From Glaucostegus cemiculus (lineage: Eukaryota), in contig CDPCPM010000275.1 of NCBI GenBank assembly GCA_976551045.1, positions 3,534,001 through 3,598,000 on the forward strand: a stretch of DNA of 64,000 nucleotides, written 5' to 3'. Position numbers and translations under genes: made by a program. Positions within the stretch are counted from its first letter, which is position 1, and each line of letters opens with the position of its first letter. Of this stretch, positions 1,263 through 61,015 are shown piece after piece. The notes under the pieces were generated by a model that searched no databases, was not told the DNA's origin, and saw nothing but the letters and a program-made list of their open reading frames with translations.

Positions 1263-1762
1263 GCTTGAGGCACAGTCTGCTAATACATTTGCAAAAAGAG
1301 TGTTTAAAATATTATAGTACTGATCGGCAATCTGATTCGAAGGTGCGAAGGGACAAAGATCACGGTGTACCCCATTAATGCAGCTGCCCAATTCTTCAAA
1401 AGTATTGTTGTCCAGTGGAAATAGGTTTGGCTAGAAACTGAAGGAGATTAATTCAGGTATGTTAACTCCATACCAGCTGAGGCAGGTAGTTCGGTACACA
1501 CAAGGTTGGAATGGTGTTACTTTGTGGAGAAAAGTGGTGGGGGAATGTTAGGAATTAGAAGGGAACTTAGTGGGCTGAGATCAACAGAGTTGTTACAAGT
1601 AGATAGAGGTGAGAAGCCAATAAGGTGTAAGGATTAGACAAAGGTTAGGATCACAGGCAGAAGGATCAGGATCATTCGGAGAATTTAAGGTGAGAGTTGA
1701 TAGGGGTGGGATGAAGGTTAGCTGCTATGGATCGTAGGGCAGCACAAATTCTTTTGTTGGTA

Positions 1763-1995
1763 GAGAAACAAGGGACCGCAGATGCTGGAATCTAGATGAA
1801 AAACATGATGATGCTGGAGAAAATCAACAGTCCAGGCAGCATCTGTTGAGAAAAGCAGGCGGTCAACGTTTCAGGTCAAGACTCTTCTTCGGGACTCCTG
1901 AAGAAGGGTCCTAACCCAGGACATTGAGCCCCTGCTTTTCTCCTCAGGTGTTGCCTGGCCTGCTGAGTTCCTCCAGCATCATCATGTTTTTCATG
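1763..1995. mobile_element. Palindromic (foldback) element, probably Penelope-like-derived, with 8-bp TSD and degenerate hammerhead cores
   Basis: Arms 1796-~1894 and ~1896-1994, with the outer 24 bp perfectly complementary (atgaaaaacatgatgatgctggag / ctccagcatcatcatgtttttcat). 33-nt unpaired left extension. Flanking direct repeat TGTTGGTA at 1755-1762 and 1996-2003. Confidence 0.75.
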
Positions 1996-2409
1996 TGTTG
2001 GTATGATGATTGTCAGCTGTGGTGGGTCTATCAGATCGGTAACTCTCCAGGGTGAGAAGGCATTTGAATCTTCAGACTGCAGGTGAAGATTGCAAGCTGA
2101 AAGGTAATTGCTACTGGGGTTGGCTAGGGGCTTAGCAGAGAATCAGAGAAAGTATGTTTGTTAGCTGAGAGCTTCCTGAGGCTGGTTGTTAGCATTGGAC
2201 TTCACTGGCCGGCACTTGATCAAGCAAGGCACCTTTAAGTAAGGCTAAAGTATGTAACACAATAATTGGCCAATCTTGTTTATGCATGGATTGGCTGCAG
2301 ATTATTTGGGCTATATTCATGTGGATAAAATCCCAGAAATGATGTTCAGTTTGGCATCACATAGGTAACGGGTTTTGTAGTTGGAGGATTCAATGAAGGG
2401 GTAGGTGAA

Positions 2410-4260
2410 ATCCTAGTACACCTCTCCATAAATAAAGTGAAGTTACCTGATGCCTTAGCAGGTTTAAAGGGAATACATCCCTGGGGCTGGGTGAGATTTA
2501 TCCCCAACTGCAATAGGAGGCAAGGGAAGGGATTGCCAGAGTTCTGAAATGGATTTTTAATTCTTCACTGGCATTGTGAAGTACCAGATAACTGGAGGAT
2601 GGCAAATTTAGTCCCCCTTTTCGAGAAGGCAGCAGGGAAAAATCTGATAATTACAGACCTGTGAGTCTAACATCAGTAGGAGGGAAGTTATTGGGAAAAA
2701 AGAATCTGAGTGTGGAATTAATGATCACTTGAAAAGGCAGGGACTCATCAAAGGTCGTCATTATGGCTTTGTCAAGGGCAGATCTTGTCAGACTTAAGAG
2801 GTAATAAAGTGTATTGATGAGGACAGTGCAGTAAATTGCTTAACATAGACTTCATTAAGGCCTTTGACAAAGCCCCACATTGAAGACTGGTCCAAATGGA
2901 TAGAGCCCATGAGAGCCAAGGTAACTTGATAAATTGTATCCAAAATTAGTGATTGGAGGAAGAGGGTGTGGTAGAGGGTTGTTTTCATGAACGGATGCCT
3001 TTGACTAGTGGCATTCCGCAAGGATCAGTGCTGGGACCTTTGTTTATAATATATTTGAATGAGTGCTGGGACCCCTGTTTGTAATATACTTGAATGAGTG
3101 GTGTGTAGGAGGCATGATCAGTAAAGTTTGCAGATGACATGAAGATTGGTGGAATTGTTGACTGTGTGGAGGGTGGTCATAGGCCACTGAGTGTTGGTGA
3201 AATGGGCTGAGAAATGGCAGATGGAGTTTAATGCAAATTAATCTGACATAATGCATTTTGGGAGTACTAATGAGGCTAGGACATACACAATGATTATTAA
3301 GGTCCTATGGTCTATTGAGGAACAGAAGGACCTTGGTGTTCAAGAAAAAGATCCTTGAATGTGGCAGTGCAGCTAGGTAAAGTGGTTAAGAAGACCGTGG
3401 AACACTGCCCTTCACTGGGCTTCAAATACAAGAGTAGAGAGGCTATGCACCAACTTCATTAAAACATTGGTAAATCCTCTGCTGGATTACTGCATGTCAC
3501 TCTGGTCACCACACCATAGGAAAAATGTGATTGTTCTGGAGAGGGTGCAGAGGAGATTCATCAGGATGTTACCAAGGTTGGACCATTTCAGTTATGAGGA
3601 GTGACTGGAGAGACTAGGTCTGTTTTCCCTGGAGTAGAGGAGGTTAAGAGGGTATGTGATTGAGGTACATAAAACTATGAGGGCTATTGATAGGGTATAC
3701 TTGCAAGTAACTTTTCCCTGTATCAGGGGTAGATAAAACTAGAGGACATAGATTTAGGGTAATAAGTAAGAGATAGGGATCTAAGAAGAACTCCCAGAGG
3801 GAGTGGAGGAAGTAGAATCACTGTCAGCATTTAAGAAGTGTCTATATGAGCACTTGAATCATCTCGGTATGGAAGGCTATAGGCCAAACGCTGGGTGGTG
3901 GGATTAATACGGATGAGTTCCCACTGGTTGGTGTGTTCGAGGTACAAAGGTCCAGAGGGAAAATTATAGATTCATGCGCAAGTCCCTGAATTTCCATTAG
4001 GTTTAATGTGTAGCTGTCTAGCACACAGGTATATGGTAGAATGCAATTTAGGACATAGATTTAGGGTAATAAGTAAGAGATAGGGATCTAAGAAGAACTT
4101 TTTACACCCAGAGAGTGACAAATACCTGGAAGGCACTACCAGAGGGAGTGGAGGAAGTAGAGTCACTGTCAGCATTTAAGAAGAGTCTATATGAGCACTT
4201 GAATCATCTCGGTATGGAAGGCTATAGGCCAAACGCTGGGTGGTGGGATTAATACGGATG
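2410..4260 (+). mobile_element. Decayed CR1 LINE ORF2 (RT) to 3' end
   Basis: Frameshifted RT motifs: NYRPVSLTSVGGK (~2650), TSGIPQGSVLGP (~3004), ISKVFADDMKIGG-like (~3118), LERVQRRFIRMLP (~3536). Confidence 0.9.
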
Positions 4261-4394
4261 AGTTCCCACTGGTTGGTGTGTTCGAGGTACAAAGGTCCAG
4301 AAGGAAAATTATAGATTCATGCGCAAGTCCCTGAATTTCCATTAGGTTTAATGTGTAGCTGTCTAGCACACAGGTATATGGTAGAATGCAATTT
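3743..4394 (+). repeat. Near-identical tandem duplication (3743-4049 and 4050-4394)
   Basis: Both copies run aggacatagatttagggtaat...gaatgcaattt. Copy 1 lacks 38 nt present in copy 2. Also visible as twin ORFs 3842-4024 and 4187-4429. Confidence 0.95.
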
Positions 4395-4649
4395 AGTTTC
4401 CAGGCAATTCTGTTATTGAGAGCCATCATTTTATTAGCACATGGACATGAATTGATTTCACAGCAATAAAGCCATGTATCTGAATTTTATTGTTTTGATA
4501 TTAATCTGACAATTTATAGAAATATTCCATTTTGCATTGAAACAACTGCTTTAATATGAGAAATACTATTATTACAGAATGAAAAATTTTACAAGTTTTT
4601 ATATATCTGTAGAAGCTGTCTATTATTATTTAGTATTTGCTCTCATATT

Positions 4650-28212: not shown

Positions 28213-28430
28213 GAAGACACAAAAGACTGCAAACATTGTAATCTGTAGCAAAGAACCAACTGCTGGAGGAACTCAGTGGGTCAGGCAGCATCTGTGGAGG
28301 CAGAGGGATGGTCAACATTTCAGGTGTGCTACAGGGTCATGACCTGATACATCAACTATCCCTCTGCCTCCACAGATGCTGCCTGACCCACTGAGTTCCT
28401 TTAGCTGTTTATTTATTGCTCCAAATTTTC
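28213..28430. mobile_element. Palindromic foldback element, same family as 1763-1995
   Basis: Perfect 43-bp inverted repeat 28267-28309 / 28358-28400. Same left extension (gacacaaaagactgca...). Confidence 0.8.
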
Positions 28431-59009: not shown

Positions 59010-61015
59010 AAAAAATTGAAAGGGCTTTTATAAGTACAAATTAATGTAAAAAGGAAATGGACAACAGAAGTAAACATGGATCCCTTAGAGGCAGAGTCTA
59101 GTGACATTGTAATGAAAAAAATGTCTAACAAATATTTTGTCTGTCCTCACAGTAGACGGCAAAAAGAACATAGCAAAATTTATAGGGCAACCCATGGGTC
59201 TAATTAAAGTGTGGGAACTAAAAGCAATTAGTATTAGTAGAGAAATACTACCAGAGAAATTAGTGGGACTGAAAACAACAATCCCTTTCATTGTTTCTTG
59301 CTGAGGTACTCTCATTGTGTTTCCTCCTTCCTTCAATTTTTTTGGTTATTCTTCACCAGTTAATAAAACCCTTCCAATCCTCAGACATCACAAAATTAGC
59401 AATGTCAGAAGTCTCTTTTAAGAGCATAAGAAATGGTCTACATCCTCAACTTTTAAAAAAAGTGATTGTGTAATTTGTGAATGTGTGGAATTTGATCTTC
59501 CAGAATTCCCTAGGTTCTAGAATGGGTCTTGCAGATTGAAAGGTCACAAATATAACCATTATTTTGAAGAAATGATAGAAGGAAAACAGAAAATTATAAG
59601 TCATTCTGCCTGACTTTAGTAGAGAAATGCTGGAATCTGTGTTTTCAAGAGATATTTACAGTGGTTCTGGAAAATCACAACGCTTGAGTAGTCAACATGG
59701 TATTTTTGAAATGGAATCATGTTTGACACTCTTATTAGAGATTTTTGATTGATGTAACTGCCAGGTTAGATAAGGGAATAGTATGTTTGGATCTCAGAAG
59801 ATGCTGAAAAATGTGCTACATGAGCAGTTTTTACACAAGGTGGAATGATAGGTACGGAGTTAACATGAAGACTTGTTTAATGGATAAAAGACAGAGCAGG
59901 AATAAATGCTTCACTTTTAGGAGGCTGCAGCAAGGGGAATAAAACAAGGAAATGCATGTAATACTCAGCTGGTTAGGCAGCATTTGAGGAGAAAGCTGCC
60001 AGTAGAGAGATGTTAACTGAGTATTTCCGGCATTGTTTTTTTTACTTCATATTTCTACCATCTGTATTTTTTTGATTTTTAATTTCTTTAACTCGGGGAG
60101 TACTGCAAGGATAAGTGCTTGGGCCTTGGTCATTCATTGTCAATGTAAATTACTTGTCTGATGAGATTATATGTGATATATCTAAGTTTGGAGATGGTAC
60201 AAAGCTAGAAAGGATGAAAGCTATGAGGAGGATGCAAAAGGGACAGACAGAACAGGTGTATGGACAAGAAATCTCGGAGATGGTGTATAACATGGAGAAA
60301 TGTGAAATGATGCTTAAGAGTAAAAAGAATGGAAAAGCAGAACAGTTTTTAACAAGTGAAAGTCTATTAAATGCTGGTATTCATTGATATAAGGCAGCTA
60401 TAATGCACAAGTCACAGAAGAGGATGTGAAAGCCACGTTAGTCTTTATTGCAATGAGTTCAGAGTATTAAGTGAAGAGCCTTACTGCATTTATGTAGGAC
60501 TTGGGTGAGATCTCACCTGCAACCCTGTAGCTAGTTTTGGTCTCCCACCCGAGGCCTCTGAGGTGTGCAATGAAGCAACCTGCATGAATCCTTTGTGAGG
60601 CTGACCTATGATGAAAGGTTAAATAGAATTGTTCTCGTTTCCCTGGAGTTTAGATGAATGAGTGGTGATGTCATTGTTAGATAAAATTATAACATGATAT
60701 AATGAGGTGGATTCTGAGAGACTGCTTCCTCATGCTGGAGTACGTTGTACTTTAGGTTATAATCACAGAGTAAAGAGTTGGTCATGGAGGAGTAAGATGA
60801 GAAATTTCTTTACTCGTAAGTGTAGTGAATCTTTGGAATTCTGTGTTTCAGAGGGCTGTGAATGCTGAGGTGATGAGTACATTCGGAACTGAGGTTAATA
60901 TATTTTTGGACGCAGAGTCAGGAAATAGGACAGGAAAGTGAAGGTGATCTGGCAGCTTGGCCATGGCCTTATTGAATGGCATCACCCAAGCTTAATGGAC
61001 AGTATGGCCTACTTT
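59010..61015 (+). mobile_element. Old rearranged CR1 LINE, with a foldback element inserted at ~59935-60085 and an inverted piece at ~59285-59405
   Basis: VLQG*VLGPWSFI...ISKFGDGTKL (~60099-60207), YRTWVRSHL-like (~60495), RMSGDVI-like (~60655). 3' UTR ggccttattgaatggc...tatggcctact. Confidence 0.75.

Follow-up and report, generated by a model that had tools for sequence, protein, structure and literature searches.

How does a palindrome with a hammerhead-like sequence in each half come to lie between two copies of a short direct repeat? The question is raised by a 64,000-nt stretch of the Glaucostegus cemiculus assembly (contig CDPCPM010000275.1, positions 3,534,001 to 3,598,000; hereafter the window), in which the direct repeat TGTTGGTA flanks a 233-base insertion at 1755-1762 and 1996-2003. 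An earlier note, made from the letters of the window, had described an 8-bp target-site duplication (TSD) around a near-perfect palindrome of ~200 nt with an asymmetric 33-nt extension, and had proposed a non-autonomous, ribozyme-bearing derivative of a Penelope-like element (PLE) that folds back close to the ribozyme start. The insertion is the decayed stub of an abundant PLE in a layout that is already known. Its features are given below; element sense is the minus strand of the window, and position 0 is C3 of the hammerhead, i.e., window position 1892 in the left arm and 1898 in the right arm.

1755-1762 (probably 1749-1762), no strand: left copy of the TSD, 8 exact bases (repeat and alignment)
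1763-1896, minus strand: tailed arm, PLE 3' end from -4 to +129; 121 of 134 bases equal the family majority
1763-1795, minus strand: 33-nt PLE tail (+97 to +129), on the tailed arm only; tail as defined in PMC8557442 and PMC11167929
1860-1896, minus strand: remnant of a minimal type I hammerhead, with U4 to C at 1891 and a stem II mismatch at 1883 (numbering after PMC4209133)
after 1865, minus strand: predicted hammerhead cut site of the left arm (numbering after PMC4209133)
1895-1896, no strand: head-to-head junction; base 1896 is common to both arms
1896-1994, plus strand: tail-less arm, PLE 3' end from -2 to +96; 87 of 99 bases equal the family majority
1896-1930, plus strand: second remnant of a hammerhead, with AGGA in place of the GAAA box (1918-1921) and further mutations in the palindrome and stem I
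1996-2003 (probably 1990-2003, overlapping the arm end), no strand: right copy of the TSD (repeat and alignment)

The inverted arms (1796-1894 and 1896-1994) are complementary at 80 of 99 positions (81%), and their predicted fold (-136 kcal/mol, z -13.2) was matched by none of 200 shuffles; the palindrome is thus real, but not near-perfect. The extension at 1763-1795 has no pairing partner, as had been stated, and the two hammerhead-like readings quoted earlier were recovered on the minus strand from 1892 and on the plus strand from 1898. The exact 8-bp repeat is probably part of a duplication of ~14 bp: the flanks align at 12 of 14 positions (1749-1762 versus 1990-2003) once overlap with the end of the right arm is permitted, and a TSD overlapping the end of the inverted arm was found in 15 of the 24 TSD-bearing relatives with such an arm. 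Identity to the majority sequence of the family is 90% in the left arm and 88% in the right arm (family mean 91%), and the two have only two changes in common, both at CpG sites, which fits independent decay since insertion. The locus is almost certainly inert debris.

The G-skewed target DNA around the insertion (about 1270-2470) had no match among the fetched family loci; it is adjoined from about 2480 by RT remnants that we take to be CR1/L2-like. Elsewhere in the window, a second head-to-head PLE insertion lies at 28215-28400 (an older subfamily, 73% identical to the family of the locus, with a tailed arm on the minus strand from about +16 and a tail-less arm on the plus strand from about +7), two PLE-end fragments, very short and decayed, in inverted orientation at 59940-60050, and a 262-nt direct repeat with 98% identity and 345-nt spacing at 3728-4396.

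The parent element and the architecture of its copies

The genome (2.85 Gb) was searched with the left arm as query. Close relatives of this arm are 89-91% identical and all end at +129; among the best 29 of them, 26 run on upstream of the hammerhead into the end of a GIY-YIG ORF. A near-full-length copy (L386 together with L406), which begins at -1, carries the motifs ADKGG, DVESLY, AMGTHMGP and YIDD in addition to GIY-YIG; the DKG motif is named as diagnostic of PLEs in PMC8557442. Both the PLE origin advanced in the earlier note and the GIY-YIG/RT Penelope elements with the same end that it had asked about were thus found. Of four decayed parent proteins searched against Pfam, two gave matches, to RVT_1 (E 5e-5) and GIY-YIG (E 3e-4), neither of which reaches its curated cut-off, and two gave none. 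A stepwise upstream walk led to 30 exact matches in which the tail continues into the beginning of the ORF; since the terminal sequence recurs before the ORF, the end of the element is the pseudo-LTR (3' UTR plus 5' leader) of an endonuclease-bearing (EN+) PLE, with the likely ORF start at about +156, beyond the tail. By resemblance, this parent may be "Poseidon-like". That the insertion is a PLE product is close to certain.

Among the copies seen, just two extend further than 1.5 kb into the ORF, one from -1 and the other from +91. Five others (L377, L378, L379, L380 and L398) track the reference for ~420 nt into the ORF and then diverge at one common point, which may point to a subfamily with an internal deletion or to an indel of the reference. 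A 36-mer from the tail is matched exactly 1,584 times in the genome. An arbitrary 1-Mb sample contained 13 arms of the subfamily of the locus in 10 stretches, with 118 PLE-end matches overall, and suggests tens of thousands of PLE insertions.

For the architecture we used 148 loci chosen by an exact tail motif only, i.e., neither arms nor junctions entered into the choice; for a strict arm count, 5 run-on loci were dropped and neighbours of other subfamilies excluded, leaving 143 insertions. TSDs scoring at least 8 were present in 48 of the 148 loci (versus 0.4% of shuffled pairings), and their length was 8-15 bp, mostly 11-15 (8 bp in three of the 48). An inverted arm at the 5' junction was found in 40 of the 143 insertions and was tail-less in all 40, ending at +88 to +101 in 32 of them. 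Arm lengths form a continuum to >700 nt and short junction overlaps are common. The insertion in the window is this layout with both arms short (-4 to +129 and -2 to +96). The variable TSD and the asymmetric ends (an unpaired 33-nt tail at one end only) exclude a hAT-type MITE, in agreement with the earlier view that this is not a DNA-transposon MITE, and palindromes of this type are a warning to annotators against MITE labels.

Origin of the two arms

We consider it likely that both target ends were primed, at two fixed sites of the element RNA. The endonuclease would cut the two strands about 14 nt apart, one 3'-OH would prime at +129 and the other at about +96, and the 3' ends of the two cDNAs would be joined by microhomology or repair. 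We propose that these priming sites correspond to the pair of internal sites at which the RT of an anole PLE is reported to start in vitro (PMC11167929). The principal evidence comes from comparing the arms within insertions: in 15 of 40 insertions it is the tail-less arm that extends >10 nt further toward 5', and in 19 of 40 it is the tailed one. In those 15, each arm has sequence that is missing from the other, so that copying of one arm from the other fails and double priming is the likelier explanation. The 5' ends of paired arms show a rank correlation of 0.24 (P 0.14), and both arms end between -10 and +15 in 5 of 40 insertions, against 5.5 expected if they were independent. The family copies thereby provide a genomic argument against simple self-priming.

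Self-priming has been put forward for the PLEs of A. vaga (PMC3846280), and an origin in which one cDNA or antisense template loops back and copies the second arm would be in line with the frequent short junction overlaps. Private variants common to paired arms are also slightly in excess (15 of 2763 sites, 0.0054, compared with a mean of 0.0021 and a maximum of 0.0055 for random pairs in 500 permutations), which could reflect one source locus, conversion or some copying. The locus on its own cannot tell fold-back from double priming, because its tail-less arm lies wholly inside the span of the tailed arm. We nevertheless regard fold-back as improbable in view of the 15 mutually non-copy pairs, of the inverted arm ending at a fixed internal site (+88 to +101) and not at the target junction, and of the mere two changes, both at CpG sites, that the arms of the locus have in common.

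The distinct non-autonomous element of the earlier note, a palindrome (MITE-like or a ribozyme-bearing mini-PLE) copied as a unit, fared worse. Six exact-pattern palindromes were found, of which one (L031) has the junction of the locus, and both arms begin at the hammerhead in ~3.5% of the tailed insertions (5 of 143); such recurrence is what a self-propagating unit would give. The six palindromes have six different junctions, however, the frequency of insertions with both arms at the hammerhead equals the independent expectation (5 versus 5.5), and arm lengths and TSD lengths vary as described above, which leaves this possibility very remote.

The hammerhead edge and a predicted RNA start

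The 5' ends of the arms are not evenly distributed. Among arms reaching +15, 45 of 133 end between -10 and +15 (hazard 4.9 times background, P 3e-17, for a window picked after seeing the data), and the upstream edge is sharp, with none of 88 arms ending at -23 to -11. This agrees with the suggestion that the fold lies near the ribozyme start, junctions being enriched there. Restricting the count to TSD-supported loci leaves the excess in place (14 of 32), and another subfamily shows it too, with 5 of 11 ends at -7 to +4; clustering of the older copies into subfamilies yielded a single cluster of at least 8. None of 142 arms ends at the predicted cut site (+26 to +30). Genome-wide, a pattern with a break before -4 had 405 matches, and 53 of the first 100 were true breaks by hand count; patterns elsewhere had 20 matches at -8, 74 at -1 and 91 at 0, and since these patterns differ in stringency, a rough correction gives ~300 (-4), <60 (-8), 140 (-1) and 125 (0). 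The peak at -4 is the A of an initiator-like TCAGTCC, and ends spread to +15 and are not confined to one base.

Two side observations concern these ends. In about 7 of the 53 true breaks at -4, the first ~10 bases of the element stand a second time just before the break, as if the RT had re-annealed after the template end. Of the 16 arms with an exact start at -4 (L316-L345), 12 are tail-less, 3 are tailed and 1 is broken at +30, which may mean that priming at +96 leads to run-off more often.

Upstream of the peak there is a TATATA, 31 nt before the A of TCAGTCC, a sequence that fits the initiator consensus. In other subfamilies with different spacers, a TTTATA/TTTTAT-like box is present at -33 to -29 in 22 of 29 (with ties decided in favour of -31). 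Immediately before -4, the breaks have G in 23, A in 25 and T in 5 cases, versus G 12, A 28 and T 28 before 0 (P 0.002 for G, by hand counts in which 23 of the 91 control rows at 0 were dropped as deletion-like; raw G 12/91). Against position -1, the raw test of the G excess gave P 0.15, and a check through the TSDs of 16 loci gave one clear extra G between the arms (L326), most being ambiguous. An extra G is what copying of the cap would leave, as with the RTs of L1 and retroviruses; the G could also come from repair, A being as frequent.

The pile-up of arms at -4, often with an extra G, suggests run-off at a capped RNA start. That these ends are run-offs at the RNA start we regard as probable; that this start is a capped one, set by the TATA box and initiator, is a prediction from sequence motifs toward which we lean slightly. 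Transcription from a promoter within the pseudo-LTR would then begin at -4, the 5' leader of the RNA would also contain these priming sites, and priming there would yield run-off cDNAs of 100-134 nt, with the hammerhead as cargo of the leader. At the locus, both cDNAs would happen to be run-offs, and we propose that the palindrome is centred on the hammerhead start for this reason. No listed sequence record that holds the stretch is RNA. Three RNA-Seq runs of a related organism and one contig set had reads on both strands without concentrated molecule starts or ends; because the libraries are taken as fragmented and the element is many-copy, they have no bearing on the start site.

Double priming could also have been combined with a pile-up caused by the hammerhead fold or by a bound protein, through RT stalling or a roadblock to a 5'-3' exonuclease, and not by a promoter. 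The ends coincide with helix I and the core, also in the second subfamily; the PAc protein (Poseidon of Anolis carolinensis) is reported to assist hammerhead folding (PMC11167929), and an exonuclease block would likewise predict a sharp 5' edge. RT stalling, however, should end cDNAs 3' of the helices (+19 to +32), where there is no excess, the isolated motif folds weakly (-5.5 kcal/mol), and a structural stop predicts neither the TATA spacing nor the G excess; we hold it to be unlikely. A 3' splice site at the boundary, with short copies stemming from spliced RNA, is scarcely credible, for all that a pyrimidine tract plus CAG at -5 to -3 fits an acceptor and helix I is where an intron of the D. 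virilis PLE terminates (PMC4209133), as the peak at -4 would then lie inside the intron, non-inverted short copies abut the TSD without a common exon 1, two internally deleted copies (L361 and L369) jump from -4/-5 into the RT region through a CCA microhomology without a GT donor, and no skip ending at -2 is among the RNA joints listed.

The minimal type I hammerhead seen by the earlier note is present in the family: CUGAAGA with a bulged A, G10.1-C11.1, a 4-bp stem II, GAAA and a palindromic ACGU (the ancestral 11.1 and ACGU states were derived from column counts via CpG states), with a helix I of 3 bp plus a mismatch. By core and stems, 10 of 87 family arms are intact. Stem II is nearly invariant and its changes are CpG-like, so that of the two consensus features looked for earlier, CUGANGA/GAAA was found and stem II covariation was not; stem I has a two-sided change, C-G in 35 and T-A in 6 (P 0.02; 64 of 68 other-subfamily copies, related copies not being independent). 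No Rfam family reached its gathering score within the window, and the test with hammerhead models drew a blank, with no Rfam hammerhead match at E<=5 on three good family copies. Core columns retain 1140 of 1201 states (94.9%) compared with 14997 of 16009 (93.7%) at other non-CpG columns, no clear signal of ribozyme selection after insertion. Whole subfamilies with core changes occur (L042-L354), CTGATGC (A9 to C) in 14 of 68 and CAGATGA (U4 to A) in 14 of 68; amplification went on from altered-core masters, in line with cleavage that is dispensable or variant.

At the locus, U4 to C with the stem II mismatch in the left arm and GAAA to AGGA in the right arm mean that both hammerheads are predicted to be catalytically dead, a prediction in keeping with the earlier expectation. 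U4 to C was rejected as a family trait (3 of 121). The back-to-back remnants are on opposite strands and cannot form a dimer in cis, and a read-through RNA of the locus would have only one hammerhead in sense, buried in a hairpin of ~99 bp.

The whole model, i.e., two head-to-head PLE 3' ends made by double priming at a staggered cut and stopping at the RNA start, appears reasonably probable. A fuller joint reading, in which +1 of a vertebrate PLE RNA is the first base of helix I, priming is double with a ~14-bp stagger, run-off copies the cap G and the leader is uncleaved, is offered tentatively, as something we find plausible without quite favouring it. If true, about a third of the cDNAs getting that far would be "strong-stop" products, their head-to-head joining would explain the class-wide signature of inverted pLTRs plus tail, and the role of the hammerhead would be that of a 5' leader left uncleaved, not that of scissors.

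Comparison with known systems

The inverted-arm architecture is already published and the locus itself is ordinary; the interest is in the family, whose copies preserve traces of an insertion process that is still poorly understood, name one base as the predicted RNA start and have no ends at the ribozyme cut site. A literature search (outside supplements, subscription journals and Repbase) found nothing on PLE double priming, a 5' pile-up at the hammerhead or PLE palindromes of sharks, nor the combined TATA/initiator/extra-G evidence. In twin priming of L1, each of the two target ends serves as a primer and an inversion results, the second primer annealing at variable internal sites and inverting a non-overlapping segment. 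The double priming proposed here is alike in the use of both target ends and in the inverted product, and unlike it in that the two family arms span one and the same 3' end, each from its own fixed site.

The closest architectural match is with units of EN+ PLEs such as Pen2a_Av (PMC3846280; legend of Fig. 2 in PMC8557442), described with inverted pLTRs, a tail and a TSD; this layout is reported for rotifer, fly and fish PLEs in the same two papers. In common with these units, the family has a head-to-head, inverted, 5'-truncated copy, a one-ended tail of 30-40 nt and a variable TSD. The locus differs in having no ORF between the repeats and in copies cut to 99-134 nt, and the family statistics favour double priming over the self-priming proposed for Pen2a_Av. 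A putative TATA and Inr are given for the Pen2a_Av pLTR (PMC3846280), beyond which the present family ties TATA/Inr to a pile-up of 5' ends. For the Penelope of D. virilis, a TATA-less internal promoter (PMC2377424) and an intron ending at helix I (PMC4209133) are described.

In vitro, both target strands are cut and extended by PAc, cleavage by the hammerhead is not needed, and the hammerhead is at the pLTR-ORF junction (PMC11167929). The family resembles PAc in all three respects, the cutting and extension of both strands and the dispensability of cleavage being proposed here, and in two putative internal RT start sites that bound the tail; it differs in its likely ORF start, which lies after the tail (~+156) and in PAc inside the hammerhead. 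PMC3846280, PMC8557442 and PMC11167929 leave open how inverted pLTRs arise and what the PLE hammerhead does.

With the metazoan PLE hammerheads of PMC4209133, which also mentions hammerhead pairs 100-700 bp apart on opposite strands, the family has in common CUGANGA, one bulged base, G10.1-C11.1, GAAA and a palindromic ACGU, the differences being a helix I of 3 bp plus a mismatch, a helix II of 4 bp and, at the locus, mutated cores. Non-LTR retrozymes (bioRxiv 10.64898/2026.07.22.740005) are likewise PLE-derived, non-coding and hammerhead-bearing, but they are head-to-tail tandems with hammerheads on one strand; the locus is a single head-to-head pair with hammerheads on opposite strands, which rules out retrozyme identity.
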